A DNA stretch of 64,000 bases. It comes from an uncultured Gammaproteobacteria bacterium (GTDB lineage Bacteria > Patescibacteriota > Patescibacteriia > Patescibacteriales > BS150m-G62). A program made the position numbers and the translations under genes. Positions within the stretch are counted from its first letter, which is position 1. Each line of letters opens with the position of its first letter. Shown here in pieces: positions 2,491 through 56,852 of this stretch. The notes under the pieces are model-generated. The model was not told where the DNA came from, searched no databases, and worked only from the letters and a program-made list of their open reading frames with translations. Where the stretch lies: NCBI GenBank assembly GCA_964569045.1, contig CAZMSR010000001.1:2593-66592 (forward strand), in the 5' to 3' direction.

Positions 2491-2501
2491 ATGCCAAATG
2501 G

Positions 2502-4476: not shown

Positions 4477-4478
4477 AT

Positions 4479-5500: not shown

Positions 5501-5510
5501 TATATGCAGT

Positions 5511-6026: not shown

Positions 6027-6064
6027 ATTTTTTTAAATTTAAAATAATATTTTTGTGTTTTTTA

Positions 6065-34056: not shown

Positions 34057-34077
34057 TAGTTTTGCTATATTAAAAGT

Positions 34078-35550: not shown

Positions 35551-36198
35551 ATGAACCTAGATATTAAGCAAAAGATTGCACTCGCAGGGCTGTTTGTAGT
35601 AGCTATGTTTGTTGTAATTATAGGAATAAGAGGCATAAGAAGCACTATTTATGGCGCAGACTATAAGGAAAAAAAGGCCGGAAAAAGTATTGATTACTCA
35701 AATTTAGAGCAAGACTATAAGGCTAATGCAAACATAGAAATTAAATTAACCGATACTGACGGCGACGAATTAACTGATTGGGACGAGCTTAATGTTTATA
35801 ATACTTCGCCATATATTCCGGATTCAGACTCAGACGGGATTCTTGATGGTGTTGAAGTTCAAAATAACTTAGACCCAACTTGTCACAATCAAAAAGTCTG
35901 CGATGGATTAGATCAAGTTCAAGAAAGCACTGTAACTTCTGAAGATGCTTTAAGTAATGAAGTAGACGCTGCAACTCAAGCTAAAATTCAGGCAGTAGTT
36001 AAACAGTTTGATAAAGGTTTTGGTAGTGCAAACAATATAAAAATAGATGTTAATAATCTACCAAGCGAAGTTAAGAATATAACAAACCCGGATGATTTGC
36101 GCAGAATTTTAGAAAAACAAGGCATGAGCAAAGCTATACTAGAAATGCTAAGCAACGAAGACTTAATGAAAACATATAATTCTTTGATTAATAAATAA
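35551..36198 (+). CDS. N-terminally anchored protein with thrombospondin-type-3-like repeats (anchor 1)
   Basis: One TM helix. DTDGDELTDWDELNVYNTSPYIPDSDSDGILDGVEV. Ends 6 nt before the giant gene. Confidence 0.6.
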   Translation: MNLDIKQKIALAGLFVVAMFVVIIGIRGIRSTIYGADYKEKKAGKSIDYSNLEQDYKANANIEIKLTDTDGDELTDWDELNVYNTSPYIPDSDSDGILDGVEVQNNLDPTCHNQKVCDGLDQVQESTVTSEDALSNEVDAATQAKIQAVVKQFDKGFGSANNIKIDVNNLPSEVKNITNPDDLRRILEKQGMSKAILEMLSNEDLMKTYNSLINK

Positions 36199-36204
36199 AG
36201 GGTT

Positions 36205-39200
36205 GTGCATAGGAAAAATTTTTTTCTAAAAACAAAAATTTTCAAACAAAAGGCAATAAGTGCCTTGATTTTTGTTTTTATATTTGTGCAAGTGGGTGTG
36301 CCGATAGTGGAGGCTCAGTCAAGACCTAGTAATTTGGCGCTAGCTTCTGCAGAAATAAAAACTAAAGCATATGGAACCGAGCAAGTAATTAAAAAACAAA
36401 CTAGGACTGACAAGGATCGTACTGCTGAGCAGATTCGTCAAGAAAGGTTAAAACAGCTTAATGATAAAGCAAAAAAAAGTACTTTTAGAAGTGTTGTTAG
36501 TAGTGTGCTTAATACTATAGCCTATGACACTGCTTCTTGGCTTGGGGCTGGAGGAAAAGGTCAAAAACCATTGTTTATTCGCGAAGGTTGGGGTGAATAT
36601 TTATCTAATATTGGTGATCAAGCTCTTGGGCAGTTTATTGAAGAGTTTGCTAAAGATTTTGTAGGAGACGCTTGTAACCCGGAAGTTGGTTTAAAAATAT
36701 CACTTGGGATGAAAGGTCAGCAACGACCAACTTTTGGAAAGTGTAGTTTTACTCAGATGGTTGATAACTGGGAACAAGCAATTGAAAGCACTGACTTTTT
36801 AAATAATTTTCAAAGTGTATTTGATCTGAATAATAGCACAACAGATATAAGCATGGCATTAAACGCAAATATTGGATTGCTTGAGTTTCAATTAAGTGAG
36901 CAAGAAAAAGGAAAAAGAACAAGAGGTAATACAGATGAAAATCTTCCACGTGACCCTGCCGGTCGTGCCACAGCACCGCCAGGAATGGCATCGGTTTTAA
37001 CCGAAGAGCCTCTTGAATGGTTTAGACAAAACTGCGCTAATCCTTCCGGAGATACTGTTTTGGTAGAAGCTATGACAGTATTTGTTTGTCAATTGTCTTA
37101 TACTGCTTTTGTGACTTTGCTTATGGATTTACTGGCTGATAAGCCAACAGTAACCGAGCCATATAGTGGTTCGTATAGTTTTGAGTCCGGTCCTAGAGCT
37201 GATGGAATATCAGGAACTAATGAATATATGCGTAGTATTCTTCAGCCTAATTTTGATATTCGCGGTGATTATGAAATTTTATCTGAATTAGTAAACTGCC
37301 CTAATCCTAATAAAGCCGGGCCAACAAACTGCGTAATAACTGAAAATTTTCGTAAGGCAATTTCAGAACGTAAAACAGTTAAAGAGGCTTTAAATGGATA
37401 TTTAAATCCGCAAGGAATATTTGGTTTTGTTTCTGAGGATCTAGAGCCATTGTATAATGAAGGTTATCCGTATAGATCAATGATTATTTTGCGTAAATTT
37501 AGAATTTTGCCTGTTGGGTGGGAATTAGCTGCTGAATATATAAGAAATAACCCAAGCGTTGGTACATTTAATTTGCAAGATCTTGTTGATTGTTATGATT
37601 CGACAGATAGTAATATGGCATGGTGCAGTGGCTTAGTTGACCCTGATTGGGTATTAAAAGCGCCGCTTAATAGCTGTAAATTAGAAGGACCAGGCCCGGA
37701 GATTATGCGCGAAAGTGTTGTGGGGCAAGGTGTTAATTCAAGAAGATCAGTTCAGCGTAATACTACATATTGTGCTGATGAGCAAAGTTGCATTAAAGAG
37801 CGAGATGATGGGTCATGCGATGCACACGGATATTGCACGGAAGAAAAACGTACTTGGAATTTTGCTGCTGAATCATGCAACCCTATTTTTAATACTTGCG
37901 ACACTTTTACTAGAGTAGATAATGATTCTTTTACTGTTAGTTATTTGCAAAATACTTTAGACACATGTGGTCAAAATGAAATTGGTTGCAAAGAATATTC
38001 AACTAAAGTTGAAACAGATGAATACGAGCCAATAACAGATGTTGTTAGTGAGTGGAGTGGTAGTCAAACTGATTCTATATTTTTTAATTCAAATGCAGCA
38101 GAGTGCACTGTAGACGAAGAAGGTTGCCATATGTTTTTAAGAGAAGCTACTAATAATACACCTACTTATTTAAAATTGCTTCCTGATTACTTGGGTCAAG
38201 TTTGCTATAATTTAGGCACAGATACAAGCGAATACTATAATTACAAAGAAGATCTAACGCCTGAAGTTAAAGCGCGTTGCGAACAATTTGTAAGGCGTTG
38301 TAATGCTAGCGAAGTAGGTTGCGAGCTATATACTGACATAGTACGCGGTGATAAGATCCCGGCTAAAATAACAACTTTAAACCAATGCCCAAATGAATGT
38401 GTTGGCTTTGATGAGTATCAAAAACGCGAAACTATTTTTGAAAGTAGTGAGAGCGCCTATTTTATCCCAAGATACGCTGATACTTGCCGCCTGGACATGG
38501 TTGGTTGCGATGAATTTACAAACTTAGACGAAGTAGCCCGCGGCGGTGAGGGTCGCGAATACTATGTTGATTTAAAACAATGCGTTGACCCGGACGAACC
38601 GGAAGGCGAAGCTTGCTCTAACTTTTACATTTGGGAGCAGCTTAACACCGGCCCGCAGTTAAACGTATTAAATTTAAAGGCAGATGCAAAAAATGGTGGC
38701 GCACCCGTAGTTACAAACAGCAATGAAGATTGCACAGAACAAACTTTTAACAATCCGGAGCATCCTAACTACAACCCTGATTGCCAAGAATTTTTAGACG
38801 AAAACGGTGAAAAGCACTACAAGCTTTACTCTAAAACAATTACCTGTTCCCAAGATTGCCATACCTACAGAAGAGCCGGGCAGAATATTGATTATAGTAT
38901 TGCAAAAAATAGTTGCAATAACGGAAGCAACGGTGATGAAAAAGGCTGGAGTTCAACACATAACGCTTGCGTGGTTTGTAAAAACGGTGGTAAATGGAAT
39001 TCAAGCCAAGGCGCTTGCCTCTATAGCGCTATACCCGGCGAAGGGCGTTTATGCTCCCAAGAATTTGCCGGTTGTCGCGAATACTCAGGCCCACAAGCTG
39101 CTAATGTTCGCGAAATCGCGCGCTATGATTTTGAAGGGGTTCATCCTTCTTTAGCTGATTGGAGTAATGCTGAAATAGCTAACGAAGCTTTGTTAATAAA

Positions 39201-42200
39201 CGGGCAGTCAATAACAAATACTTCAAGTCAAAGCTCAGTCTCACTTAATTTGGGCGGTAGATTAAGACCCGGTAGCACATATATACTTTCTTTTTACGTA
39301 AAGCCCGGTAATACTGCTAATTTTAAAGTGAAAATTGATGATACTAATGGTTCTGAGATTAAAGGACTAAAGCAAGACAAATGGCAAAGAGTTGAAGAAT
39401 TAATAACTTTAACCAATAGCGTTGCTAATCAAACAATGTCTATTGGATATGATAATGGAAGCACAAAATTCTACATTGATGACTTTAGGTTAATAGAGGT
39501 GATTGACAGATATTATTTTATGAAAGATTCTTTTGAGATTCCATCAATGTGTCATCAAGAATATTGGAAGCTTCTTAGTCCGGAAAATTATCCGATTCCT
39601 TTTAATGAAGGTGGTTATCCTTTTCCAAATTATTCGCTTGGATGCCGCGAATATCAAGATAGAGAAAGCGCTTCACATTTTTTAAAAGATTTTACAGAAC
39701 TATGCCAAGAAACAGCAGTCGGCTGCGAACGCATGATAGATACCCATAATTATACAGGTGAGGGAGCTGAAGCATGGAATGAAAGTAATCCGAATGAAGG
39801 CGATGATGCCTGCGATTCCGGAGAACAAAGCTGCGTTTCTGTTCTGGCTAATAACTTAGTGTATGTAGTATATGATACTGAAAAGCAGTGTAATGCAGAT
39901 GATAAAGGTTGCTCAAGATTTGGCGAGAAAAAGTCTGTTGCAGGTACTCCGTATTACGAAGATGCTTATATTAAAAATAATCCGGATCATTATAGTACTT
40001 CAGTAGATTCTGATGCTATTTTATGCACTCAAGATGGTATTAGTTGTAAAGCTTGGATTTCGGAAATTAATGGTACGCGCTATTTTAAAGATCCGGAAGG
40101 CAAGGAGTGTGAATGGCGAGCTAATAGTGATGGAATAGAAAATTGGTATCAAAAAAAAGCGAATCGTTGTGATACAGATAGCAACGGAGTAATTAATGAT
40201 AGTGAAAATCTTCCAGCTAATAGTGGAGCGAATGGTGCATTAAGCCCGGCTTGCGCAAGCGCTCGTTCTTGCAGTGTAATCACTGATCCGTCTGATAGCT
40301 GCCAAAAAGACAGTGATTGTGGTAATAATACTTGCATTGATTCGCAGTGTCGTTATTCTTGTATTCGTGATAATCGAGATCATGTGTGCGGTAATCAAAA
40401 TGCTTTAAAAACAATTGGCTCAAATGGTGTTAATTCTCACATTAGTCAGCCAAGTGGCAGTGATGGTTGGGTTGGGGTTTGCCCAATTCGTGAATCCGGA
40501 TGCACAGAATATATTGATCCAATTGCAGAATTTAGCACAAATTTAGTATTTAACCCAAGCGGTGAAGAAATTGCCGGAGTTAATAATGCAGGTTGGGAAA
40601 ATCATACTCCAAACGGATTTAAGCAGGAGATCGAAGTCGAACCGGCTACGCTTTATACAATTAAAGGCGCAACTAAGTTTCAGTGTGATAATGCTATAGA
40701 TAAAATGAATTCAGATAATGTTTTGGTAAATGTGGCATTAACTACAGATATTACTTTGACAAATGGAGAAAGTATTTTATTTAAAACAAATAATAATGCT
40801 AATAAATGTACTGTTTTTAGGGATGGTGATGTAACGGAAGTTATCTTACGCAAAGCAGAGGCGAATTATAGGTTATTAAAAGATATTGACAGAAGTTCTT
40901 GCCATGAACCTGATTTTGATAGTGGCTGTATTTTGTTTAATGAAAGAACTCAGTTTGGCTATAGCGAGAATATGAGTAGTCTTTCTTATAATGCTGACAA
41001 TTTAGAGGCTTTGAATAATTGTACAAATGGAGCTAATTGTGACTCAAACCAAATTTTAAAAGTTGAACCTAATAGAGTTTGCGCTGAATGGCTTGCGTGC
41101 AGGTCAATGGTTAAGGTTAGGGATGAAGATGGTCAAGAATCAAGTGTTTGCCTAGGTGTTGGAGCATGTAATGGTCTTGATAGTAATGATGAATGTAGTA
41201 GTTTTGTAAGAAAAGAAAGAATAAATAATGACTATACAAAAGATAGCGTAACAGCGGCAAGTGTTAGTAATTTATCCGGATATTCTAAGATTGGGTACTC
41301 AAAATATAAAAACAATGCTCAATTGCCATCATTTGAACGAAATGATTTATTTTCATTAAGTGCTATGAGTCAGGTTGGTGAAATTGCAGTAGTGCCAAAT
41401 GGTAGCTTTGAATTTTCAGGTGAGAATGGATACCCGATTGGTTGGAGTTGGGATAATCAAGAAGAAGTTGATAAGGTTTGGACACCAAATGTTTTTAAAG
41501 TAATTAATAGTCCTTATGAGGTAAAAGAAGTTGAAGTTATTAATTTTTCACCTGCCGGAGAGGGATTTATTAAAATTGGTTCATCTCATGTAGTAATTTC
41601 AGAAGAAATAGATGTTGAGCCTCAAAGAGATTATATTTTTACTGCCTATATTAATACTCAAAATTTACAGGTTGGTAACGGTGTGATTGATATTGTATCA
41701 GCCGGAGAATCTATTACTAGCACAACAGAAGATCAAGGAGGTGAGGGTTGGATATTTAAAATAAAGAAATTTAGATCAAATTCAAATCAAATTAATATTA
41801 AACTATATAATGATGACAACGATTCTTCAGGAGTTTTTTATGTAGATGGAATAAAATTAAGACCGGCTTTACATACTAGAATTGAATCTACTGAAACTGA
41901 AGACCAAACTAGTTCTGACAATTGGTATGTGCCGCAATCATGCAAACTTTATCCTGAGCCAAGTTCCTTAGCTTGCGAGTATATTGATGACTCCGGTGTT
42001 AATCAAAGGGGGTTGTATGGATATTGCTTAGAATATGATAGATATCCGGGTGATGAAAACACATGTTTGCTTTGGTATCCGGTTAATAGAGTTAAAGGCG
42101 ATTGGATAGAAGAAGGTGCGGGCTATAGTGATAGGTTTCCTCTTTATTATTGCCTTGAAGCAGTTGGATACTGCTCTGGAACAGAAGGTGAGATACCGGC

Positions 42201-44076
42201 ATTGTATTGTAATAAGTTAGTTAAGGTTGTAACAGAAACAGGTAAAAGTAAGTTTTGGTATTCAAGGGTTAGGGAAGGCAGTGATCATAGTATTGAATTT
42301 AGTAATGCAAGTGAAAATAAGCATATTTATTGGGGGGCAATTAATCCAATGGGGCACGAGATTGTTAATTTAGGTTATTCGCGTGATTCTAGTCCGTATG
42401 GTAGTATTGTAGCTCCTGCGCCAACTCATAATCCTTTTGAGTGGGATGGGTTAAAGCGACGAGGCAAAGAAGTTTTAAAAGAACCATTACAGATTTATGA
42501 TGCAATATCAGGAGAGGGATTAATTAGAGCCGGTACCCCGTATTATGGCAATGGAATTACTTGTCGAAAAGTATTTGAGCGTGAGCGATACGGAAGTTGT
42601 GGGACTCGTCATGAAGTAAATAGAGGAATTTGGGATTCATGTACAATGAAGTCATATAATGATGATTGTAACACAGCTACACCTTTTGCCTCCACAACCA
42701 ATGAATTAGGAGAAGTTATAACTACTCATGTTGATTGTTGCGGTGGTCGTGGTAGAAAATTAACAGTAACAACACAGTGTTTTAGTGATTTAAAATATAA
42801 TATAGCTGAAAATGAGGTGCAGGCAGTTAGTGGGTTAAAATCAATTTTTGCTCAAAGTTATGGTACTTGGGTATGGAATGGTAATGATGAAAGTGGTTTT
42901 TATGAAAAAGTGCCAGATGATATGGATATTACAACTAAACAGCAATGTGTTTCAGATGATCCAGGAACTGTAGGCGTAGAATGCGCAATGAATAATTCTA
43001 ATGACTGCCCATATGGTTATTGCCCTAAAAGTAATAATGTGCAAGAAGGGGACAGTTTAGGCTATTATCAGTGCGGTGTCTTGAATATATCTTGTTGTCC
43101 GGAAAATAAAAAAGTTTTAATTGATTCATGTAAAAGTATTGATGGAGATTTTAATTGCGTTGAGGGTTTTTGTGATAAGCTTCCAAGCCAAGCATGTACT
43201 ATAGAATATAGATGTAATTTAACAGACACAACTCAGGTAATAGTTGATACTCATGATTGCAGTCAATATAATAATGCAATATGTAAAGAAGTTACTACTC
43301 TTAATGCTTCAAAAACTTGTATAGGTGGCGAGAATCATGGGCATGTGTGTCAGGCGCATGCATGTATAAATGGAGTTTGTGATCTTGTTTCAACTTATGA
43401 GTCTAGCAATAGTAGTTCAGGAAGTCATAGCTGGGAACCTCCGAATAGTATTTGTGAGAATAATACACGCCCTGATTACCATAATGATTCTTCTAAAAAT
43501 GGTAATGGTAATAATAGTTATTGCGCAGTAACGCCAAGTATTACAAATATTCGTATTGATAATCCAAATATAGTTAAAACAGGTTTTGTTAATTTAACTT
43601 TTAATTCAGATGTTAATGAAGATCAATTACCATTAACAATGGTTTCAGTTGATTGGGGTGATGGAAAGGAAACAACAATTACTGGTGCTGACATGCTTGA
43701 TAGGTCAAATAATAAATACCCTCACTCATTCTATCATTTATACGACTACTGGGATTTAAAAAGAAGTGATGCAGACAATGATGGCATCATCTGTGAAACA
43801 GAGAGTACTCCAAGTAACCGCAATTATTGCAAAATTAAACCAAAAGTAAAAATTCGTGATAACTGGGGGTGGTGTAATGCTACTGATACTGCTACTGATA
43901 CTACTACTGATACTACTACTGATACTACTACTGCTACTGATACTACTACTGATACTACTACTGCTACTGATGCTACTACTACTGATACTGATACTGATAC
44001 TGATGCTACTACTACTGCTACTAATTGCAATTATTGGGAGGAATATAACGATGATATTAAAGTTTATGAAAAATAG
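36205..44076 (+). CDS. giant (2623 aa) Cys-rich exported surface protein with CBM4_9-like, PKD-like and Thr/Asp-repeat regions
   Basis: Uninterrupted ORF from GTG 36205. Signal peptide ..VPIVEAQS. About ten GCxE(Y/F)-type motifs. Two jelly-roll-like segments ending FYIDDFRLIEV and FYVDGIKLRPA. VDWGDGKE near the C-terminus. Confidence 0.8.
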   Translation: MHRKNFFLKTKIFKQKAISALIFVFIFVQVGVPIVEAQSRPSNLALASAEIKTKAYGTEQVIKKQTRTDKDRTAEQIRQERLKQLNDKAKKSTFRSVVSSVLNTIAYDTASWLGAGGKGQKPLFIREGWGEYLSNIGDQALGQFIEEFAKDFVGDACNPEVGLKISLGMKGQQRPTFGKCSFTQMVDNWEQAIESTDFLNNFQSVFDLNNSTTDISMALNANIGLLEFQLSEQEKGKRTRGNTDENLPRDPAGRATAPPGMASVLTEEPLEWFRQNCANPSGDTVLVEAMTVFVCQLSYTAFVTLLMDLLADKPTVTEPYSGSYSFESGPRADGISGTNEYMRSILQPNFDIRGDYEILSELVNCPNPNKAGPTNCVITENFRKAISERKTVKEALNGYLNPQGIFGFVSEDLEPLYNEGYPYRSMIILRKFRILPVGWELAAEYIRNNPSVGTFNLQDLVDCYDSTDSNMAWCSGLVDPDWVLKAPLNSCKLEGPGPEIMRESVVGQGVNSRRSVQRNTTYCADEQSCIKERDDGSCDAHGYCTEEKRTWNFAAESCNPIFNTCDTFTRVDNDSFTVSYLQNTLDTCGQNEIGCKEYSTKVETDEYEPITDVVSEWSGSQTDSIFFNSNAAECTVDEEGCHMFLREATNNTPTYLKLLPDYLGQVCYNLGTDTSEYYNYKEDLTPEVKARCEQFVRRCNASEVGCELYTDIVRGDKIPAKITTLNQCPNECVGFDEYQKRETIFESSESAYFIPRYADTCRLDMVGCDEFTNLDEVARGGEGREYYVDLKQCVDPDEPEGEACSNFYIWEQLNTGPQLNVLNLKADAKNGGAPVVTNSNEDCTEQTFNNPEHPNYNPDCQEFLDENGEKHYKLYSKTITCSQDCHTYRRAGQNIDYSIAKNSCNNGSNGDEKGWSSTHNACVVCKNGGKWNSSQGACLYSAIPGEGRLCSQEFAGCREYSGPQAANVREIARYDFEGVHPSLADWSNAEIANEALLINGQSITNTSSQSSVSLNLGGRLRPGSTYILSFYVKPGNTANFKVKIDDTNGSEIKGLKQDKWQRVEELITLTNSVANQTMSIGYDNGSTKFYIDDFRLIEVIDRYYFMKDSFEIPSMCHQEYWKLLSPENYPIPFNEGGYPFPNYSLGCREYQDRESASHFLKDFTELCQETAVGCERMIDTHNYTGEGAEAWNESNPNEGDDACDSGEQSCVSVLANNLVYVVYDTEKQCNADDKGCSRFGEKKSVAGTPYYEDAYIKNNPDHYSTSVDSDAILCTQDGISCKAWISEINGTRYFKDPEGKECEWRANSDGIENWYQKKANRCDTDSNGVINDSENLPANSGANGALSPACASARSCSVITDPSDSCQKDSDCGNNTCIDSQCRYSCIRDNRDHVCGNQNALKTIGSNGVNSHISQPSGSDGWVGVCPIRESGCTEYIDPIAEFSTNLVFNPSGEEIAGVNNAGWENHTPNGFKQEIEVEPATLYTIKGATKFQCDNAIDKMNSDNVLVNVALTTDITLTNGESILFKTNNNANKCTVFRDGDVTEVILRKAEANYRLLKDIDRSSCHEPDFDSGCILFNERTQFGYSENMSSLSYNADNLEALNNCTNGANCDSNQILKVEPNRVCAEWLACRSMVKVRDEDGQESSVCLGVGACNGLDSNDECSSFVRKERINNDYTKDSVTAASVSNLSGYSKIGYSKYKNNAQLPSFERNDLFSLSAMSQVGEIAVVPNGSFEFSGENGYPIGWSWDNQEEVDKVWTPNVFKVINSPYEVKEVEVINFSPAGEGFIKIGSSHVVISEEIDVEPQRDYIFTAYINTQNLQVGNGVIDIVSAGESITSTTEDQGGEGWIFKIKKFRSNSNQINIKLYNDDNDSSGVFYVDGIKLRPALHTRIESTETEDQTSSDNWYVPQSCKLYPEPSSLACEYIDDSGVNQRGLYGYCLEYDRYPGDENTCLLWYPVNRVKGDWIEEGAGYSDRFPLYYCLEAVGYCSGTEGEIPALYCNKLVKVVTETGKSKFWYSRVREGSDHSIEFSNASENKHIYWGAINPMGHEIVNLGYSRDSSPYGSIVAPAPTHNPFEWDGLKRRGKEVLKEPLQIYDAISGEGLIRAGTPYYGNGITCRKVFERERYGSCGTRHEVNRGIWDSCTMKSYNDDCNTATPFASTTNELGEVITTHVDCCGGRGRKLTVTTQCFSDLKYNIAENEVQAVSGLKSIFAQSYGTWVWNGNDESGFYEKVPDDMDITTKQQCVSDDPGTVGVECAMNNSNDCPYGYCPKSNNVQEGDSLGYYQCGVLNISCCPENKKVLIDSCKSIDGDFNCVEGFCDKLPSQACTIEYRCNLTDTTQVIVDTHDCSQYNNAICKEVTTLNASKTCIGGENHGHVCQAHACINGVCDLVSTYESSNSSSGSHSWEPPNSICENNTRPDYHNDSSKNGNGNNSYCAVTPSITNIRIDNPNIVKTGFVNLTFNSDVNEDQLPLTMVSVDWGDGKETTITGADMLDRSNNKYPHSFYHLYDYWDLKRSDADNDGIICETESTPSNRNYCKIKPKVKIRDNWGWCNATDTATDTTTDTTTDTTTATDTTTDTTTATDATTTDTDTDTDATTTATNCNYWEEYNDDIKVYEK
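43879..44022 (+). repeat. in-frame ACT/GAT/GCT trinucleotide tandem repeat (48 codons of T/D/A)
   Basis: Encodes ATDTATDTTTDTTTDTTTATDTTTDTTTATDATTTDTDTDTDATTTAT near the C-terminus of the giant protein. Generates spurious ORFs in other frames. Confidence 0.9.
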
Positions 44077-44098
44077 TTTTAAGTGAATTGAGTTAATT

Positions 44099-44135
44099 AA
44101 AAAATTCGAGCTTTATGCAGATACTCGAATTTTTT
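44099..44135. terminator. intrinsic terminator after the giant gene
   Basis: AAAAAATTCGAG - 13-nt loop - CTCGAATTTTTT. 12-bp perfect palindromic arms with a T-run. Lies 23 nt after the stop. Confidence 0.6.
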
Positions 44136-44194
44136 AATCCCAAAAAAATATGCTACAATAATTATAATAAGATAAATATATTTTTTATATTAAA

Positions 44195-45280: not shown

Positions 45281-45338
45281 ATGCTTAATAATTATGATTG
45301 TAGTATTTATTAATATTTATAAGTTTTTTAATATTAGA

Positions 45339-46223: not shown

Positions 46224-46236
46224 TTAATATATTAAT

Positions 46237-47088: not shown

Positions 47089-47104
47089 AATTATTATAAA
47101 AAAA

Positions 47105-47127
47105 ATGACTTATAAAATATAAGTCAT
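47105..47127. terminator. perfect 10-bp hairpin after anchor-2 gene (weak terminator candidate)
   Basis: ATGACTTATA - AAA - TATAAGTCAT, preceded by an A-run. Only a short T-rich tail follows. Confidence 0.3.
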
Positions 47128-47224
47128 ATTGTAAATTATTTATTTCAGAAGATTTAAAATTCTTGGAAGCATTAGTATACCGACAAAGAGTGCTCCAAAT
47201 AATGTGGCAATAATTTTTTAACAA

Positions 47225-49858: not shown

Positions 49859-49866
49859 ATTTTTTT

Positions 49867-50643
49867 ATGAATAAACAAGTAAAAATTTTTCTATTTTCTA
49901 TTTTATTTTTAATTGTTTTTTTTACTATCACTATATTTGCATTAAGAAAAATAGTTAATCAGAAAGAAATTAATATTCAACAAAACCAAATTAAAGACAA
50001 TAGTAAAAATACTGAAGAATTAATGCAAGAGAAAAGTGATGAAAAAGAAAATGACAATAAAATATATAGTGAAATAAAAATATCAAAAGATTACACTAAA
50101 TGCCAAAATATTAGCAATGATTCTAAAAGAGATTTGTGTTACTTTTTATTAGGGCTTGAATCAAAAGACAAGGAGGTATGTAAATTTATTCAAAAAGAAA
50201 GTCAAAAAGAAGAGTGTGAAAACAAGGTTATGTATAATTTTGCATTAGACTCTGATGACATAGAATTATGCAATTCTGTGAAGAATAAAAGATTGCTTGA
50301 TTCGTGCATAGTACGAATAATATCAGATAAAGCTTTTTCTAAAAGTGACTGTCAAAAATTAAATACTCTTCAACAAGAGATTTGTTTATCATATATACAA
50401 TTTAATGACATTATTAAAAAGAGTGATATAAATAAATGCGATTCATTAAATAAAGCTGACCAAAGTGAATGTCAAGACATATTAAATAGTAAAGACACTG
50501 ATAATGATGGGTTACCGGATCTAGACGAAATAAGAATTCATCAAACAGACCCCAAAAATCTCGACACCGACGGCGATGGCTACACAGATGGCGAAGAAGT
50601 CCGGGCCGGGTATAATCCTTTGGGAGCAAGCAATCTTAAGTAA
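49867..50643 (+). CDS. N-terminally anchored Cys-containing protein with C-terminal thrombospondin-type-3-like repeats (anchor 3)
   Basis: One TM helix. C-terminus DTDNDGLPDLDEIRIHQTDPKNLDTDGDGYTDGEEVRAGYNPLG. Starts 8 nt after the vWA gene. Confidence 0.6.
   Translation: MNKQVKIFLFSILFLIVFFTITIFALRKIVNQKEINIQQNQIKDNSKNTEELMQEKSDEKENDNKIYSEIKISKDYTKCQNISNDSKRDLCYFLLGLESKDKEVCKFIQKESQKEECENKVMYNFALDSDDIELCNSVKNKRLLDSCIVRIISDKAFSKSDCQKLNTLQQEICLSYIQFNDIIKKSDINKCDSLNKADQSECQDILNSKDTDNDGLPDLDEIRIHQTDPKNLDTDGDGYTDGEEVRAGYNPLGASNLK
50494..50618 (+). repeat. 125-bp near-identical segment, copy 2 (pairs with 46939..47063)
   Basis: See copy 1. Differences are two C/T changes and a GTGCAGG/GTCCGGG patch. 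Confidence 0.85.
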
Positions 50644-50664
50644 AATTGATATTATTGTAGGTTT

Positions 50665-50693
50665 TTGTGCATCTTTAATTTTTTTAGTATAAT
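50665..50693 (+). promoter_or_regulatory. candidate sigma70-type promoter for the T4SS-like sub-block
   Basis: TTGTGC - 17 nt - TATAAT, 67 nt upstream of ATG 50760. Such matches are frequent by chance in AT-rich DNA. Confidence 0.25.
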
Positions 50694-50759
50694 ATATGTA
50701 TAAGAAAAAAATGCATAGATTTTGTTATTAAAATAAAGCAATATTAGAGTATTTTTATT

Positions 50760-52199
50760 ATGCTCGAAATTTTGAAAAAGTATAATGAATTACCTCGAGA
50801 GCTCCGGGCTAAATTAGCTGCACCGGAGGTTTTAGCTATGGTAGAGAAATTAGAAAATATTTACGAACGAAAGCTTTCTCAGATTATTATGCGGGTTATG
50901 ATTAAAGAGCTAGAGGTTGCAGAATTAGTTGAGCAGTTTGTATATATTTACAAGTTAGAACGAAGTAAAGCTGAAGAGCTTGTGGAAAAATTAAAAAAGA
51001 ATATTTTTTGTCAAGTGAGTGATTACTTAAAATTTGAAGATACTGTTTGTGCAGTTGACTTTAAAGATAGCATGAAGCAAGTAAAAATTAGTGTAAACGT
51101 AAAAGAGCAAGTAGAAAGAGTTATAGATAAAGCCGAATTTAGTTTTGCCTCAGAAATGCTTGCAAATAGATTTAAAGACATTATAAAAACTAATATAGTA
51201 GGAGTAAGAGATTGTTTAAGCGTTAAAGAAACTTTAGCTAAGCCTGTGAATAAAGGAGGGGTAGGGCTTAATGAGGAAGAAATAAATAAGGTTATTAAAA
51301 TATTAAAATGTAAAGGCGATTTATTAAAAGAATTAGAAAAAAAAGAAGCTAAAAAAGAAGCGCCGGCTATAGGGTTAGACGTAGCTAGCTTGCGAGATGT
51401 ACCTTATGATTTAAATAAACTAAGGGAAATGAGTAAAAAAGGAGCAGAGCCAACACCTAAAAAACCACTAGAAATGACAAAAGAAGAGTTAAGTGCAGTG
51501 CCGGTAGAATCAGTTAAGCCGGAATCTCAAATTAAAAAAGAAATATCTAGCGCGGTTCCAAATGCACAAGAAGTTAAACCTTTAGAAAAAGTATTAAAAA
51601 TTGACCCTGCACCACAAAAAGAATTAGCAAAAGAAGTATTAGATACCACGCCAGAAGCGGTAGTTAAGAAGCCTTTGAAGAAAAAGTCTAGGTTTTTAGA
51701 TAATTTAAAAGCAATTTTACCGGAGCTTTCAAAACCTAAAGAAACAGTAGAAAACGGAATAAAAATTGTTACTAAGCCAAGTTTGCCAAAAGAAAAGTTA
51801 CAAAAACCAATTGTGAATCATGTAGTAGAAAACGGCAAGGTAAAAATGGAAGATATTCGCTATGTTAAGCGAACAATGGGTCCGATTGATGAGTTAGCTT
51901 ATTTGAGTTTAATGGATTTTCGGCGTTTGCACCAAAACCCGGCTGGAGCTATAATTAAAATAAAGGAAAAAATCGACTTACTTGGGGAATATTCATATGA
52001 ACGTAAGCAGCGCGGTATAAAAGCCTGGAGACAAAATCCGGTTAATAGGCTTTATTTAAAAATAGGAGAACTTAGTATGGCAAAATCAAAGCCCATTAAA
52101 GATATTGCAGAAGATTTAAAGCAAGATCAAAAAGACTACTTAAATGAAGATGAATTTAATGCCATTGGTGAACTAAATAACGAATTAAAATATTTTTAA
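50760..52199 (+). CDS. hypothetical K/E/P-rich protein with structured N- and C-terminal domains, first gene of the T4SS-like sub-block
   Basis: 479-aa ORF with 12-nt spacing to the PrgI-like gene. No catalytic motif recognised. Confidence 0.5.
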   Translation: MLEILKKYNELPRELRAKLAAPEVLAMVEKLENIYERKLSQIIMRVMIKELEVAELVEQFVYIYKLERSKAEELVEKLKKNIFCQVSDYLKFEDTVCAVDFKDSMKQVKISVNVKEQVERVIDKAEFSFASEMLANRFKDIIKTNIVGVRDCLSVKETLAKPVNKGGVGLNEEEINKVIKILKCKGDLLKELEKKEAKKEAPAIGLDVASLRDVPYDLNKLREMSKKGAEPTPKKPLEMTKEELSAVPVESVKPESQIKKEISSAVPNAQEVKPLEKVLKIDPAPQKELAKEVLDTTPEAVVKKPLKKKSRFLDNLKAILPELSKPKETVENGIKIVTKPSLPKEKLQKPIVNHVVENGKVKMEDIRYVKRTMGPIDELAYLSLMDFRRLHQNPAGAIIKIKEKIDLLGEYSYERKQRGIKAWRQNPVNRLYLKIGELSMAKSKPIKDIAEDLKQDQKDYLNEDEFNAIGELNNELKYF

Positions 52200-52211
52200 A
52201 AGCTAGCTTAC

Positions 52212-52631
52212 ATGAAACAGTTTACAATACCTCAGTTTATAGATGTTGAAGATAAAATTTTAGGGCCTTTAACGGTGCGTCAGTTTTTAATAATGCTTGT
52301 ATGCTCAATGATACTATTTGTGTATTACAAGGTTTTTGATTTTACTTTGTTTGTGGTTGCAGGATTAATAACTTTTGGAGTATTCGGAATACTGGCTTTT
52401 GCGCGAATTAATGGCAGACCATTTCATTTTTTTATACTAAATATAATCCAGACTCTAAAAAAACCGGGTTTAAGAGTTTGGAATAATACTGATGTATCTA
52501 AAATGACTGATGAAATTAAAGAGGAAGAAAAAGTCGACTACATTGCCGTTGCACCAAAGCCAATAACAAGTTCGCGCTTAACAGAATTATCTTTAACAGT
52601 AGATACATCAGGAACATACAAAACAAAATAA
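52212..52631 (+). CDS. PrgI/VirB3-like small membrane protein
   Basis: N-terminal FTIPQFIDVEDKILGPLTVRQF followed by two TM helices. Immediately upstream of the VirB4-like ATPase. Confidence 0.65.
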   Translation: MKQFTIPQFIDVEDKILGPLTVRQFLIMLVCSMILFVYYKVFDFTLFVVAGLITFGVFGILAFARINGRPFHFFILNIIQTLKKPGLRVWNNTDVSKMTDEIKEEEKVDYIAVAPKPITSSRLTELSLTVDTSGTYKTK

Positions 52632-52647
52632 AAAATAAAAATTATAA

Positions 52648-53343
52648 GTGGCAAAAAAACAAAAATCAAGAGACAGTTTAGCATCTAATAAAATTAGAGT
52701 ATCAACCCAAAAATATTTAGACATAGCTGAAATTAAAGAAGACACGGTAATTTTAAAAGATGGAGGGATGAGAGCTATTTTAATGGTTTCTAGTATTAAT
52801 TTTGCTTTAAAAAGCGAAGATGAACAGAACGCACTAGTAGCAGCTTATGTGAGTTTTATAAATAGTCTTGACTTTCCATTTCAGATTGTGATTCAATCGC
52901 GCGAATTAGATATGGAAAACTACATAAAAGACCTAAAGCAAAAAGAACGAGAACAAACAAACGAGCTATTAAAAATACAAATGGCAGAACATACTCAGTA
53001 TATTGAAGAATTAATTTCTATTGGGCGAATTATGAATAAGCGTTTTTACGCTGTTGTGCCATATAGCCCCGGGTCAGACAAGCACAAAAGTTTTTTTGAT
53101 TCATTATCCGATGCTTTTAAGCCGGCTGTATTAATACGTATAAAAGAAAAAATATTTTGGGATAGACGTGATCAATTAACAAAAAGAGTAGATAGAGTAA
53201 AAGCAGGGTTAGCATCTATGGGGCTTGTTGCTATTGATCTAGACACTCAAGCACTAATAGAACTTTTTTATAACACTTATAACCCTGTAACATCATCTCG
53301 TGAAAAACTTGCAAAAACAGAAGATTTAAGAGTTGTGAATTAA
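52648..53343 (+). CDS. hypothetical soluble protein of the T4SS-like module (resembles VirB4/TrbE N-terminal region)
   Basis: GTG start. YLDIAEIKEDTVILKDGGMRAILMVSSINFALKSEDEQ..FINSLDFPFQIVIQS pattern. Assignment is inference only. Confidence 0.4.
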   Translation: MAKKQKSRDSLASNKIRVSTQKYLDIAEIKEDTVILKDGGMRAILMVSSINFALKSEDEQNALVAAYVSFINSLDFPFQIVIQSRELDMENYIKDLKQKEREQTNELLKIQMAEHTQYIEELISIGRIMNKRFYAVVPYSPGSDKHKSFFDSLSDAFKPAVLIRIKEKIFWDRRDQLTKRVDRVKAGLASMGLVAIDLDTQALIELFYNTYNPVTSSREKLAKTEDLRVVN

Positions 53344-53351
53344 AATTAAAT

Positions 53352-55289
53352 ATGATTAATCCATTTAAAGTAAAAAAACAAGAAAAAGAAAAAAAGCAAG
53401 AAGAAGAGCTAATAGAAAAAAAGGAAACAGAAGAAATAGCTAAATCAGTAGAAAAAACAGAAGAGCTGGTTGAGGAGGAAAAAACTTTTAGAAGAGGAAT
53501 AATTTCAATAAGAGATATTATTGCGCCGGCAAGTATTAAAGTTTTACCTAATTTTTTACGTTTAGGTTCTAAATTTGTAAGGACAATTTTTGTAATAAAT
53601 TACCCTAGATATATTAGTGTTGGGTGGTTTACGCCTGTAGTTAACTTAAATCATACATTTGATATTGCTATGTACTTTTACCCGATTAAAAGCGCAATTA
53701 TACTTAAGCAATTAAAAAAGAAAGCCGGTGCTATGGAAGCACAAATAGTATCAGATGCTGAAAAAGGAGCAGCCAGAGACCCGTTGCGAGAAACAGCTTT
53801 GCGTGATATTGAAGACCTGAGAGATAAATTAACTCAAGGCACTGAAAAGTTTTTTCAATTTGGTTTATATGTAACACTTTACACTGAAACAAAGGATGAG
53901 CTAGACAAATTATCAGATGAGGTAGAAAGCATATTAGGGTCTCGTTTAATATATTCTAAAAAAGTTTTTTACCAATCAGAGCAGGGTTTTAATTCTACAT
54001 TACCACTTGATAATGACGAGCTTTATATAGTTTTTAATATGAATTCTTCTCCGGTGGCTTCGTCTTTTCCGTTTATGTCTAGCGAGCTAACTAGTGACAA
54101 AGGAATACTTTATGGAATAAATAGGCATAATAATAGTTTGATTATTTTTGATCGATTTAGTTTACAAAATGCCAATACGGTTGTATTTGCTACTTCAGGT
54201 GCCGGAAAGAGTTATGCTATTAAGCTTGAAATTTTAAGAACCTTGATGATGGGTACCGATGTAATTATTATTGATCCTGAATACGAGTACAAGCATTTAT
54301 CAGACGCTGTAGGCGGAACATATATTAATATATCATTAGCTAGTGAAAGTAAAATTAATCCCTTTGATTTGCCAAGAGCTATAGGAGATGAATCAAAGCC
54401 TGAGGATATTATTAGATCTGCTGTAATTACTACAAAAGGTTTAGTAAAACTAATGGTAGGTAAATTAACTTATGAAGAAGATTCAATAGTTGATCGGGCA
54501 CTACTTGAGACTTATGCTAAAAAAGATATTACTCCTGAAAGCGATTTATCAAAAGTAGAAGTGCCAATTATGCAAGATTTTTACGATGTTTTAGAAGGTA
54601 TGGAGGGTGGCTCTGATATTGCTCTTAGATTATTAAAATACACTAAAGGAACTTTTGCCGGACTATTAAACAATCCTACAAATGTTGAAATGGATAATCA
54701 GTTAGTTTGTTTTTCAGTTAGAGATTTAGAAGATGAGTTAAGACCAATAGGTATTTATACTATTGTAAATTATATATGGAATATTGTTCGATCTCAAATG
54801 AAAAAAAGAATTTTAGTTATTGATGAAGCTTGGTGGCTAATGCAAAGCGAAGATTCAGCCAAGTTTGTATTTGCTTTAGTAAAAAGATGCAGAAAATATT
54901 TTTTGGGAGTTACAACCATAACTCAAGATGTGAATGACTTTTTAACTTCTGTTTATGGAAAAGCTATTGTAACAAATTCTAGTTTGCAGATTCTTTTAAA
55001 ACAATCCCCGGCTGCAATTGACTTGGTGCAAAAAACTTTTATTTTAACTGAGGGAGAGAAATATTTACTATTAGAATGCGGAGTAGGTGAAGGAATATTT
55101 TTTGCCGGTAATAAGCATGCTGCAATTAAAATCGTTGCTTCATATACTGAGGATCAGCTAATAACTTCAGATCCAAGGCAGTTGCTTGAGATTGAAGAAT
55201 CAAAAAAAGAATTTGAAGAACAAAGAAAAAAAGCCTTAGGTGAGGCAGAAGAAGTTTCTCGAGAAGGAGTTGAGGAATTAGATATATAA
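53352..55289 (+). CDS. VirB4/TraC-family type IV secretion ATPase
   Basis: Walker A FATSGAGKSYAIK and Walker B RILVIDEAWWLM. N-terminal VRTIFVINYPRYISVGWF segment typical of Gram-positive-type VirB4. Confidence 0.85.
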   Translation: MINPFKVKKQEKEKKQEEELIEKKETEEIAKSVEKTEELVEEEKTFRRGIISIRDIIAPASIKVLPNFLRLGSKFVRTIFVINYPRYISVGWFTPVVNLNHTFDIAMYFYPIKSAIILKQLKKKAGAMEAQIVSDAEKGAARDPLRETALRDIEDLRDKLTQGTEKFFQFGLYVTLYTETKDELDKLSDEVESILGSRLIYSKKVFYQSEQGFNSTLPLDNDELYIVFNMNSSPVASSFPFMSSELTSDKGILYGINRHNNSLIIFDRFSLQNANTVVFATSGAGKSYAIKLEILRTLMMGTDVIIIDPEYEYKHLSDAVGGTYINISLASESKINPFDLPRAIGDESKPEDIIRSAVITTKGLVKLMVGKLTYEEDSIVDRALLETYAKKDITPESDLSKVEVPIMQDFYDVLEGMEGGSDIALRLLKYTKGTFAGLLNNPTNVEMDNQLVCFSVRDLEDELRPIGIYTIVNYIWNIVRSQMKKRILVIDEAWWLMQSEDSAKFVFALVKRCRKYFLGVTTITQDVNDFLTSVYGKAIVTNSSLQILLKQSPAAIDLVQKTFILTEGEKYLLLECGVGEGIFFAGNKHAAIKIVASYTEDQLITSDPRQLLEIEESKKEFEEQRKKALGEAEEVSREGVEELDI

Positions 55290-55307
55290 TAATTTATTTT
55301 AAAGAAT

Positions 55308-55943
55308 ATGCCTAGAAATTTAATTGGTGCAATAGTTATTATTATAGGTTTAGTTAGTCTTTTATTTTTTGGGTATGTAGTGTTTTTTAATAAAGAACAA
55401 TCAGTGGAGCATGTAATCACGGAAGAAGCCGCAATTTGGAAAAAAGAGCCGGAAAAAACAGAAAAACAAGAATTTCAAAAAAAAGATTTGCCAAAAAAAC
55501 AGAAAAGAACAATAGTAATAGAGTCAAGCGAGAAAGCTGAATCAATAGAAGAAGTTTTTTTAAATAAAATTGAGGTTGAGCGACTAGCCGGGAATTTTAT
55601 AGAGCGATATGGAAGTTACTCAAGTCAAGCAAATTATGCTAATTTACACGATTCAATGCTCTATATGACTGACGCTATGAAAGAACGAGTTTTAAGAAGC
55701 ATAAAAGCAAGCAAAGCTAGAAAAGAAGTTGATAGAACTGTTTATAAAAGTGTTGCAATACGTGCTGTTGCTCGCAAATTAATTAATTATAACAAAGGTG
55801 ATATTCGTGCGCGAGTGCTAGTTGGGGCGATTCAATCTGAGGTTTTGGGTGACAAGGAAGTAGCATCAAGAAATAGAAATGTTGAGGTACATTTAGTAAA
55901 AGTTGGAAAAACATGGAAAGTAGAAAATGTTATTTGGCAGTAG
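55308..55943 (+). CDS. bitopic membrane protein, possible VirB8/TcpC-like (NTF2-like) component
   Basis: N-terminal TM helix, charged linker, then a ~130-aa C-terminal domain ending VHLVKVGKTWKVENVIWQ. Fold assignment is inferred from layout only. Confidence 0.35.
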   Translation: MPRNLIGAIVIIIGLVSLLFFGYVVFFNKEQSVEHVITEEAAIWKKEPEKTEKQEFQKKDLPKKQKRTIVIESSEKAESIEEVFLNKIEVERLAGNFIERYGSYSSQANYANLHDSMLYMTDAMKERVLRSIKASKARKEVDRTVYKSVAIRAVARKLINYNKGDIRARVLVGAIQSEVLGDKEVASRNRNVEVHLVKVGKTWKVENVIWQ

Positions 55944-56670
55944 TTTAAAAAAAATAATAGAAAATATACGCGATATAGTATTTCCTATTGAATGTTTAGG
56001 ATGTAATTTTGAAGGGTTGTGGATTTGTAAGAGTTGCTTAAGACAAATAAAATTAAATAATACGCAAGTATGTATTTTTTGTAAAAAGGAAAATAAAGGC
56101 GAGGTTTGTAAAGAATGCAAACAGAATTATTTTGTTGATGGATGTGTTTCATTTGGACTATATAGTAATAAATTGTTAAGTAAAATAATTAGAGCTTTAA
56201 AATATAATTTGGCAAAAGAGTTGGCAGAAATACTAGCCAATTTTTTATTTATTTTGTGGAAAAATGAATTATCAAAAAGCTATATTTCAGATAATTATAG
56301 TGGTAATGAATTTATAAATACAGAATGGTTAGTTATTCCGGTGCCACTGCATAAAAGACGCGAAAGATGGAGAGGTTTTAATCAATCAGAGCTCCTAGCT
56401 AAAGCTTTTGCCGCGCGTACTAATTTAGTAACCGATGTAATAAATTTAAAACGAATAAATCAAAGCAAGGCTCAGGCAAAATCAAAATCTGTAAAAAGAC
56501 AACAAAACATTAAAAATGCATTTTCTTGGCAAGGCGTAAATTTAAAAGGACGTGCTGTTTTATTAATTGATGATGTAGTTACAACTGGCGCAACAATAAA
56601 CGAATGCGCCCGTGTTTTAAAGCAAAACGGAGCAACTAGAGTATATGGGTTGACTATTGCAAGAGGATAG
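55927..56670 (+). CDS. comFC: ComF-family phosphoribosyltransferase-domain competence protein (ComFC)
   Basis: N-terminal Cys4 pattern (CLGCN..CKSC, CIFC..CKEC) and PRTase motif LLIDDVVTTGATINEC. Overlaps the upstream gene by 17 nt. Confidence 0.85.
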   Translation: MLFGSSLKKIIENIRDIVFPIECLGCNFEGLWICKSCLRQIKLNNTQVCIFCKKENKGEVCKECKQNYFVDGCVSFGLYSNKLLSKIIRALKYNLAKELAEILANFLFILWKNELSKSYISDNYSGNEFINTEWLVIPVPLHKRRERWRGFNQSELLAKAFAARTNLVTDVINLKRINQSKAQAKSKSVKRQQNIKNAFSWQGVNLKGRAVLLIDDVVTTGATINECARVLKQNGATRVYGLTIARG

Positions 56671-56692: not shown

Positions 56693-56852
56693 GGGACTGT
56701 CGCCAAACTCTCCTCACCCATAAATTGTTAATTTTGGCTAAATTTTTTTCAAATTTTTTTGGCTTACCTTAGGGTAGGCCTCAAAAATTATTCAAAAAAT
56801 TTATCTTAAAATTTCCAAATTTATGAATTAAAGCGAGTTTGGCGACAGTCCC
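56693..56852 (-). mobile_element. MITE-A copy 2 (160 bp, inverted relative to copy 1)
   Basis: Same 18-bp TIRs GGGACTGTCGCCAAACTC. The interior is the reverse complement of copy 1 with a few mismatches. Flanked by the direct duplication ATATT. Confidence 0.8.

Follow-up and report, generated by a model that had tools for sequence, protein, structure and literature searches.

The block examined here occupies positions 35551–56670 of a 64,000-nt stretch of DNA (contig CAZMSR010000001.1; hereafter the window, to whose positions all coordinates refer) and combines the core genes of a type IV secretion system (T4SS) with a gene for a giant cysteine-rich exoprotein on their 5′ side. It contains 13 open reading frames (ORFs), all on the plus strand. 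Their coordinates and strand agreed with the ORF list, as did the tight spacing described in an earlier note made from the sequence alone: the gaps inside the sub-blocks are 6, 13, 8, 12, 16, 8, and 18 nt, and the genes of a 211-amino-acid (aa) protein and a ComFC-type protein overlap by 17 nt (55927/55943). The description of the block as a co-directional island held for its own genes, but the strand is not distinctive, as almost all genes between 18.5 and 61.5 kb lie on the plus strand. Because these neighbors are nearly all on the plus strand and the GC skew is positive over the whole window (G+C content, approximately 32%), strand and tight spacing alone are within expectation for a compact genome. 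Housekeeping genes flank the block (KsgA on the 5′ side, PrfB and DnaE on the 3′ side), and these flanks are conserved across species.

The genes at 50760–55943 were identified by homology as the cytoplasmic-membrane core of a T4SS. The small membrane protein PrgI (VirB3-like; 52212–52631), with two hydrophobic segments, matched Pfam PF12666 at 29.5 bits against a cut-off of 27. The VirB4-family ATPase (53352–55289) is of the Gram-positive CD1110 type, scoring 355.5 bits against a cut-off of 325 with the NCBIfam model conju_CD1110, of which it covers positions 167–730 of 752; Pfam TraG P-loop (1.7e-27), AAA_10, and DUF87 match it too. The N-terminal domain absent from this ATPase (the first ~166 model positions) is exactly the part matched by the preceding 231-aa TrsD-like protein (52648–53343), which is thus a detached VirB4 N-terminal domain. 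This protein matched the N-terminal parts of VirB4 models at 1e-10 and the NCBIfam model NF041427 (TrsD) at 2.4e-7, under the full cut-off of that model, and its orthologs (63–65% identical) carry the TraC-like domain PF26593. The VirB4 protein has more than 8,000 homologs; among the 120 matches listed, all were at least 76% identical, and those that were named belonged to Falkowbacteria or the 'Patescibacteria group'. The gene after the core (55927–56670) encodes a ComFC-type competence protein with a double zinc ribbon and a phosphoribosyltransferase fold, which scored 30.7 bits with Pribosyltran (cut-off, 26.3) and 20.8 bits with DZR_2, under the cut-off of 27. The PrgI(VirB3)-like/VirB4-like module with comFC that the earlier note had proposed was therefore confirmed by the PrgI, TraG P-loop, and Pribosyltran matches.

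Two invariant genes bound this core. The first encodes a 479-aa cytoplasmic protein (p479; 50760–52199) with a fold without known match; it has no hydrophobic or transmembrane (TM) segment and is not exported, and its gene stood immediately 5′ of PrgI in every locus with enough sequence. Members of the p479 family have conserved ends and a variable Lys/Pro-rich linker in the middle, and a profile search of Pfam, NCBIfam, and PDB returned no match for p479. The last core gene (55308–55943) encodes a 211-aa protein (p211) anchored N-terminally by one TM segment and comes next after VirB4 in almost every locus. Size, topology, and position alone make p211 a candidate VirB8/PrgL-like protein: its hhalign comparisons with PrgL of plasmid pCF10 (E 0.019, probability 2.4%) and with a 299-aa hypothetical protein encoded just 3′ of prgC (E 0.16) were not significant, a homolog search gave two matches, and an AlphaFold2 model made from two sequences had a pLDDT of 41.8. 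Neither p211 nor p479 had a profile match in Pfam, NCBIfam, or PDB sequences; at the family level, PDB profile searches were likewise empty, and Pfam scans of all members gave no consistent match.

Upstream of the core, the giant gene (36205–44076) encodes a 2623-aa exoprotein with 110 Cys residues and an N-terminal export signal. Its domains follow in the order signal/anchor peptide, conserved N-terminal domain (approximately residues 90–650), Cys-knot-like repeats, two lectin modules resembling carbohydrate-binding module (CBM) families 4/9 (at about residues 1000–1100 and 1730–1890), a hypervariable Cys-rich insert (2100–2400), and a conserved C-terminal module with a Thr/Asp tandem repeat (43878–44022). 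The motif C-x6-GC-xx-[YF] is present in 10 copies, where 1.3 would be expected. Conservation peaks at residues 400–600 and 1900–2000 and collapses at 2100–2400, a Cys-dense stretch that is mostly gaps in relatives. The protein itself scored 20.2 bits with PF02018 (CBM4/9), under the cut-off of 25.9, and many homologs carry PF02018. Searched against the PDB, the family profile matched solely CBM modules (of xylanase and laminarinase) at two positions, with a best E of 3.7e-7. No Pfam or NCBIfam family covers the N-terminal domain, and no adhesin family in these databases matched the giant. A motif scan found neither an LPXTG motif nor a C-terminal anchor in it, and no LPXTG-like motif in any protein of the block. 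The AlphaFold2 model of residues 1–720, based on a 29-row alignment, had a mean pLDDT of 51.7 and a pTM of 0.28, a quality insufficient for comparing folds. Also considered as possible relatives were the FhaB-type giant proteins of Patescibacterium danicum, which belong to a different family.

The giant family is large and architecturally uniform. We found 627 homologs, all 2.0–3.1 thousand aa long, and relatives in 199 GTDB species; with the N-terminal domain (residues 90–720) as the query, 1,254 clusters at 50% identity were retrieved among 1.84 billion representatives. In the 150 best-scoring matches listed, this domain lies at the protein N-terminus, the proteins that carry it are mostly about 2.4–3.0 thousand aa long, and the shorter ones look truncated. 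In two loci (L116 3–2162 and L117 1–2370), ORFs truncated by the locus edge, 5′ of a VirB6-like gene, carry ACLTWLPIDSVNGE, which resembles the conserved ACLLWYPVDKVKGD region of the giant; these ORFs were missed by the giant hidden Markov model (HMM), so the family is probably wider than counted. Many of the GTDB loci with the giant are titled 'uncultured Gammaproteobacteria bacterium' and one 'Bacillota bacterium', evidently mislabelled third-party assemblies. Between the window and its nearest relative, identity is 45% for the giant and 89% for VirB4, a contrast that would be expected of a host-facing protein; among the conserved genes of the locus, that of the giant evolves fastest. The G+C content of the giant gene is 0.36–0.39, versus a background of about 0.32.

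The giant gene is preceded, with a gap of 6 nt, by the gene of a 215-aa membrane-anchored protein (35551–36198) with an N-terminal TM segment and a DSDSDGILD motif of the Ca-binding thrombospondin type 3 (TSP3) repeat, whose pattern is D-x-D-x-D-G-x-x-D; its NCBIfam matches, to the TSP3 regions of MtsD and CglD, are weak. Three other TSP3 proteins, of 283, 258, and 358 aa, matched PF18884 (TSP3_bac) above the cut-off (1.1e-13, 6.7e-13, and 7.4e-10, respectively). The three small N-terminally anchored TSP3-type proteins that the earlier note had placed in the block were thus recovered, two (283 and 258 aa) by TSP3_bac and the 215-aa protein by its motif. The four TSP3-motif proteins of the window are confined to 33.0–50.6 kb, and one relative has a fifth, between p211 and ComFC. 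The 358-aa protein, which has one N-terminal hydrophobic segment, is encoded on the minus strand at 33010–34086, and its orthologs occupy the same position and orientation in several relatives (L001–L003, L020, L024, L025, L028, L029, L034, L037, L040, and L047), and it possibly belongs to the surface module as well.

The earlier note had asked whether the block is syntenic in related genomes. A survey of gene neighborhoods showed homologs of the giant and of the VirB4 module together on one contig, with order and orientation kept, in dozens of species; the refuting condition that the note had set, that the two never occur together outside this genome, thus did not hold. The first sample, seeded with the giant, comprised 80 GTDB loci, which were scored with tblastn and then with family HMMs built from the loci. 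On the three contigs reached via giant homologs, T4SS genes lay 3′ of the giant in all three. Across the sample, the 215-aa anchor was encoded immediately 5′ of the giant in 59 of 63 loci, KsgA lay 5′ of the anchor–giant pair in 48 of 57, and T4SS genes followed the giant in the same orientation in 29 of the 35 loci with at least 9.5 kb downstream. The usual order in the relatives is KsgA, anchor, giant, a small C-terminally hydrophobic protein (a VirB2-like candidate), a VirB6-like protein, p244, p479, PrgI, TrsD, VirB4, and p211. The VirB6-like candidate is a polytopic protein of ~800 aa with weak TrbL_3 matches; 'VirB6-like' and 'VirB2-like' are labels drawn from topology, position, and weak precomputed matches, with a direct Pfam scan being empty. 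This gene order was kept although the giants are only 30–45% identical, and the gap between the giant and the next T4SS gene was 100 nt or less in 23 of 66 loci, several with an overlap or a gap of 0–11 nt.

The second sample, seeded with VirB4, comprised 80 metagenome loci in which VirB4 was 66–82% identical, including some near-duplicates (L116/L117 and L144/L147). The core p479–PrgI–TrsD–VirB4–p211 had the same order in all of the about 120 loci with enough sequence across the two samples, and in the VirB4-seeded sample ComFC adjoined the p211 ortholog in 34 of the 58 loci with room for it. Among the 38 VirB4-seeded loci with a full 10 kb upstream, the giant stood directly before the VirB6-like gene in 14; six were undecidable, 11 had a VirB6-like gene without a giant match (two of these look like divergent giants), and seven had neither. 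The giant and the T4SS are thus linked by an old, common, and often operon-like association that some loci nevertheless lack. Wide conservation with the T4SS is limited to the giant and its 215-aa anchor and does not extend to the other Cys-rich/anchor genes at 44195–50643. In loci without the giant or the VirB6-like gene (L086, L088, L091, L113, and L128), a PPDK_N-like gene precedes p479, forming a recurring alternative neighborhood; in L086, four tandem genes for PEP-utilizers-domain proteins of about 480 aa each (256–7344) come before it.

The remaining genes of the block, at 44195–50643, encode three Cys-rich exoproteins and two TSP3 anchors, with orthologs only in the small clade of the window. 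The statement of the earlier note that the first 15 kb encodes only exported proteins was upheld, as each of the seven proteins encoded at 35551–50643 starts with one hydrophobic segment, and six of them are Cys-rich (3.2–8.2% Cys). The 361-aa secreted protein (44195–45280), clade-specific, with 14 Cys and a hydrophobic N-terminus, had no family match in Pfam or NCBIfam, and its orthologs were found only in L001 (57% identical), L004 (51%), and L029 (34%, elsewhere in the locus). The 318-aa secreted protein (45267–46223; 8.2% Cys) and the 877-aa secreted protein (47225–49858; 28 Cys) are also clade-specific, and an 851-aa protein of L001 is a fusion that matches residues 2–379 of the latter and 85–318 of the former. 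The L001 ortholog of the 877-aa protein is 31% identical over the N-terminal 380 aa. The 877-aa protein has no sequence relative in the PDB. The DTSGS motif, from which the earlier note had read a von Willebrand factor A (vWA) metal-binding site, is present at residue 603, but the PF00092 score is 18.1 bits, below the cut-off of 23.8, so that a vWA domain is plausible rather than established. The two anchors, of 283 aa (46237–47088; 10 Cys, a TM segment, and two C-terminal TSP3 repeats) and 258 aa (49867–50643; 10 Cys and two TSP3 repeats), are paralogs (39% identity over 183 aa). The earlier reading of one Cys-rich protein as pilin-head-like found no support from Pfam or NCBIfam. A type IV pilin nature was rejected for the Cys-rich proteins, in which the hydrophobic stretch precedes an AxA-type cleavage site, indicating ordinary Sec signals.

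These five genes occupy the slot in which relatives carry the VirB2-like, VirB6-like, and p244 (244-aa) genes. No trace of the latter three was found by tblastn or the family HMMs in the whole window, nor did Pfam reveal in it a VirB6/PrgH-like polytopic protein of the kind that most relatives have. The VirB2-like, VirB6-like, and p244 genes are likewise missing from the slot in a Black Sea genome (L004/L085) and in the nearest relative (L001/L084). Between the giant and the ortholog of the 361-aa protein, the nearest relative has three genes that the window lacks (L001 18228–20966, also L084 1–2565), encoding a 540-aa six-TM spermine-synthase-like protein, a DUF2617 protein, and a four-TM protein, a sign that the slot turns over quickly.

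Two hairpins divide the block. An AT-rich hairpin with A-run and U-run flanks (44096–44138, plus strand) forms a terminator-like boundary 3′ of the giant gene (dG −14.6 kcal/mol, z −4.95; 0 of 200 shuffles folded as well), and a perfect 10-bp AT-rich hairpin (47105–47127, plus strand; dG −9.1 kcal/mol, z −3.1) lies between sub-blocks. The hairpins noted earlier near 44099 and 47105 are thus both present and fold far better than shuffled sequences. A G+C-demanding consensus scan of the window for promoters and terminators missed both, and its counts were not above those of shuffled sequence. Because these terminator-like hairpins divide the block, it is unlikely to be a single transcription unit.

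The window also encodes an FeFe hydrogenase, subunits of pyruvate:ferredoxin oxidoreductase (PFOR), acetyl-CoA synthetase, ParA/ParB, and ComEC. The FeFe hydrogenase and PFOR, together with the Falkowbacteria-labelled relatives, indicate a reduced fermentative Patescibacterium. Most Patescibacteria have a chromosomal T4SS derived from the monoderm MPF-FATA type, in which VirB4, TrsD, and PrgI are the commonest parts and relaxases are almost absent, and KsgA is frequent near virB4; in class ABY1, comF, recG, and radA are common members of the locus (Quinonero-Coronel et al. 2025, PMC12102498). The window shows the traits of this type: a monoderm-type VirB4, adjoining PrgI/VirB3 and TrsD, a chromosomal setting with KsgA near and comF adjoining, and no nearby relaxase or coupling protein; a Pfam scan of the window ORFs detected no relaxase, coupling protein, or integrase. 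It differs in that a giant Cys-rich protein with putative lectin domains and a TSP3 anchor are conserved upstream neighbors, and in lacking the VirB6-like and VirB2-like genes usual near virB4 (VirB2-like genes being frequent, not universal). The phylum-wide survey detected no adhesins and left unmatched neighbors unannotated (PMC12102498), and the part of its supplementary tables that was available makes no mention of CBM_4_9 or TSP3. The earlier note held that no family-level annotation explains the arrangement of adhesin-like giant proteins and a secretion or uptake ATPase as one unit. The linkage of the PrgI/TrsD/VirB4 module to comF and KsgA is published for ABY1, so the right third of the block is a known system; the giant/anchor part is not described in that survey.

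Three other systems offer comparisons. In the prgQ operon of pCF10 (Enterococcus faecalis), the large adhesins PrgA/PrgB/PrgC are encoded 5′ of and co-directionally with the genes of a Gram-positive-type T4SS (PrgD–PrgL/PcfC) with PrgI and a CD1110-type VirB4, as the giant is here, and the adhesin provides the cell–cell contact needed by the channel. However, the giant has no sequence relationship to PrgB and no LPXTG sortase anchoring, so that the likeness is functional only, and the locus in the window is chromosomal and vertically inherited, not carried on a plasmid, and has no relaxase, coupling protein, or PrgK-type hydrolase. The Cys-rich exoproteins of Peribacteria (Anantharaman et al. 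2016, PMC4736985) are similar by description, being big, signal-peptide-bearing, fast-evolving, and proposed to have a role in attachment. They make up a cluster of 14 genes, with 7% Cys and no link to a T4SS on record, in contrast to the giant family, with its fixed architecture of 2.4–3.0 thousand aa and a dedicated TSP3 partner gene. The DNA-import systems ComB (Helicobacter) and Ced (Crenarchaeota) likewise have a VirB4-family ATPase, no relaxase, and adjoining competence or recombination genes, but no ComB/VirB7–10 or CedA homologs occur here, and the scores with the NCBIfam CedB and CedD models are far under their cut-offs.

Taken together, we consider it probable (at roughly 0.6) that the block combines the chromosomal, non-conjugative T4SS locus of a Falkowbacteria-like (ABY1) Patescibacterium with a surface-contact module. 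The T4SS core is identified, its setting is chromosomal and non-mobile, the anchor and the giant form a conserved pair, and this pair is frequently placed tightly 5′ of T4SS membrane genes; from this conserved gene order we infer the surface module (35551–44076). The T4SS is essential for the epibiotic growth of Southlakia epibionticum (Wang et al. 2023, PMC10633639), the one system that has allowed such a test. Together with the co-occurrence of the giant and VirB4, this makes the cell-contact or uptake apparatus of a reduced anaerobe, as the earlier note had hypothesized, a reasonable reading, with the reservations that the linkage is not obligatory and that the genes at 44195–50643 are confined to one clade. 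In the mechanism we envisage, the giant, which itself carries neither a sortase signal nor a C-terminal anchor, would be exported by Sec, stiffened by disulfides, and tethered to the cell surface through the small Ca-binding TSP3 protein anchored in the membrane. Its two CBM4/9-like modules and its hypervariable Cys-rich insert may bind glycans of the host envelope, thereby placing the T4SS against the host cell, in a role like that of PrgA/PrgB/PrgC of pCF10. On this reading of the sequence, the giant would be the host-glycan-binding contact module of the T4SS, and the genes at 44195–50643 would add further Cys-rich exoproteins and TSP3 anchors in the slot of the VirB2-like/VirB6-like/p244 genes. 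A bolder proposal, which we offer only tentatively, is that the giant family and its TSP3 anchor constitute the extracellular part of the ABY1 T4SS, in which docking and host recognition are coupled to the VirB6-like protein and the insert sets the host range, and that the pilin/VirB6 part has been replaced by Cys-rich/anchor pairs in the clade of the window.

Several observations weigh against the surface-contact reading. Six of the 35 giant-seeded loci continue into housekeeping genes, with a ~400-aa secreted protein coming first in five of them, and at least 16 of the 38 VirB4-seeded loci have no giant within 10 kb (e.g., L086). In the window itself, two terminator-like hairpins lie between the giant gene and the T4SS core, and the VirB6-like membrane channel candidate is missing throughout. 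Gene order is what ties the giant to the T4SS, the interaction of anchor and giant and the binding of glycans are predictions, and both AlphaFold2 models (of the giant and p211) were too poor to use. Moreover, the KsgA–anchor–giant association is tighter than that of the giant and the T4SS, and thus the giant could be a general surface protein that is often encoded beside a T4SS.

That ComFC, or in relatives RadA and RecG, repeatedly adjoins the core points to nucleic acid as a candidate substrate of the T4SS. A possible though doubtful explanation of the block is the uptake of DNA or nucleotides, in which the T4SS core works inwards like Helicobacter ComB or archaeal Ced and the giant docks the cell to a host or debris; ComEC and ComFC would take over the DNA, and RadA and RecG would process it, feeding a cell unable to make nucleotides. 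As an account of the substrate, this explanation can stand together with the surface-module reading. It draws on the 17-nt overlap of ComFC with the last core gene and the adjacency of the two in 34 of 58 loci, on a locus (L086) with RadA in the ComFC position and RecG next, on the association of ComFC, RadA, and RecG reported for ABY1 (PMC12102498), on ComEC 8 kb 5′ of the block, and on the absence, by Pfam among the window ORFs, of the relaxase and coupling protein that DNA export needs. On the other hand, ComFC is not adjacent in 24 of the 58 loci, the weak CedB/CedD matches merely reflect the shared fold of VirB4-type ATPases, and the direction of transport is not readable from sequence. 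Furthermore, in Southlakia, deletion of comEC abolishes competence only and leaves the cells viable, so that the essentiality of the T4SS is not explained by ComEC-dependent uptake (2025 review, PMC12857230).

The main rival to the surface-contact reading, which we nevertheless regard as unlikely, is that the genes are neighbors by history, with the giant and its anchor making up an envelope or adhesion layer of general function, and their genes lying near the origin in a conserved, highly expressed housekeeping neighborhood (ParAB, KsgA, PrfB, and DnaE) to which the T4SS also belongs. Such a history would accommodate the loci in which KsgA–anchor–giant is kept even without T4SS genes after it, the many T4SS loci without a giant, the hairpins that insulate the sub-blocks, the co-directionality of the whole 43-kb region, which makes strand uninformative, and the large Cys-rich exoproteins of other CPR groups that have no T4SS link (PMC4736985). 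However, gene order is otherwise poorly kept where the giants are 30% identical, yet the giant lies immediately 5′ of T4SS membrane genes in most loci, and the gap of at most 100 nt or overlap in 23 of 66 loci suggests that the giant and the T4SS gene are co-translated. The T4SS core also moves to other contexts, such as the genes for PEP-utilizing enzymes, which means that the locus is not frozen and that the repeated giant–T4SS junction is unlikely to result from inertia alone.

An integrated conjugative element, that is, a mobile island with its own mating adhesins and T4SS, is highly improbable: a VirB4 family found in Gram-positive conjugative elements, a pCF10-like layout of adhesin plus T4SS, and the slightly higher G+C content of the giant gene would suit it, but it is rejected on the absence of mobility features (no relaxase, coupling protein, or integrase among the ORFs scanned, no attachment site, no tRNA in a scan of the window and hence none flanking the block, and no direct repeats bounding it) and on the same chromosomal flanks in many species. 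Most patescibacterial T4SSs have no relaxase (PMC12102498), and a VirB4 about 80% identical across thousands of genomes fits vertical inheritance.

The surroundings of the block include further genes of possible relevance. The KsgA/RsmA rRNA dimethyltransferase (34593–35501, plus strand; Pfam RrnaAD, 2.9e-54) is a housekeeping landmark and not a functional part of the system. Before it lies the gene of a small secreted protein of 169 aa (34078–34587, plus strand) with six Cys (3.6%), a hydrophobic N-terminus, and no Pfam family; its orthologs lie by KsgA in some relatives (L001, L003, L020, L024, L029, L034, and L040). A peroxiredoxin gene (32351–32965) is conserved just 5′ of the surface module here and in L001, and one relative has a DsbA/thioredoxin-like gene after the T4SS core (L002 28379–28799); both might matter for how an anaerobe forms disulfides in its many Cys-rich exoproteins. 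ComEC (Competence and DUF4131 domains) is encoded at 27057–28682, and a few kilobases before it lies the gene of an 857-aa protein with three lamin-tail domains, a PKD domain, and an OB fold (22281–24854); with ComFC, they make the vicinity of the T4SS notably rich in genes of the DNA-uptake type. Just past DnaE, the nearest relative (L084) encodes a 2888-aa LTD/Big_5 protein. Two GGDEF–EAL proteins, one of which also has GAF and PAS domains, and a sensor histidine kinase (138–2441, 16215–18296, and 18484–20157) make up a rich signaling complement for a reduced genome.

At the right end of the block, just after ComFC, an intergenic palindromic repeat element of ~160 nt with a terminator-like hairpin (56693–56852) has perfect 18-nt inverted arms, GGGACTGTCGCCAAACTC, around a G+C-rich hairpin with A/T-run flanks. 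Full copies lie at 20534–20693 and 56693–56852 and a half copy at 26772–26789, giving five matches to the arms against none expected. The element matched no Rfam family, and the Rfam scan of the window as a whole gave no matches; it may be a MITE-like or REP-like terminator cassette.

A large part of the uncultivated diversity of bacteria belongs to the Patescibacteria, most of which seem to lead a life attached to other cells. The T4SS half of the locus was already known; new here are the conserved giant/TSP3 surface module and the Cys-rich/anchor genes that this clade carries in the channel/pilin slot. The giant family, which comprises more than 1,000 sequence clusters and is encoded directly 5′ of T4SS genes in one major class, is a concrete candidate for the contact part, and its fast-evolving region may track host specificity. 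The conserved order KsgA–anchor–giant–T4SS explains the recurrent presence of KsgA near virB4. The layout in the window indicates that the ATPase core is separable from its usual membrane partners, with Cys-rich/anchor genes in place of the VirB6-like and pilin-like genes. Should the proposed replacement hold, the conserved ATPase core would be able to power a surface apparatus of different construction, which might import nucleic acid of the host via ComEC and ComFC.

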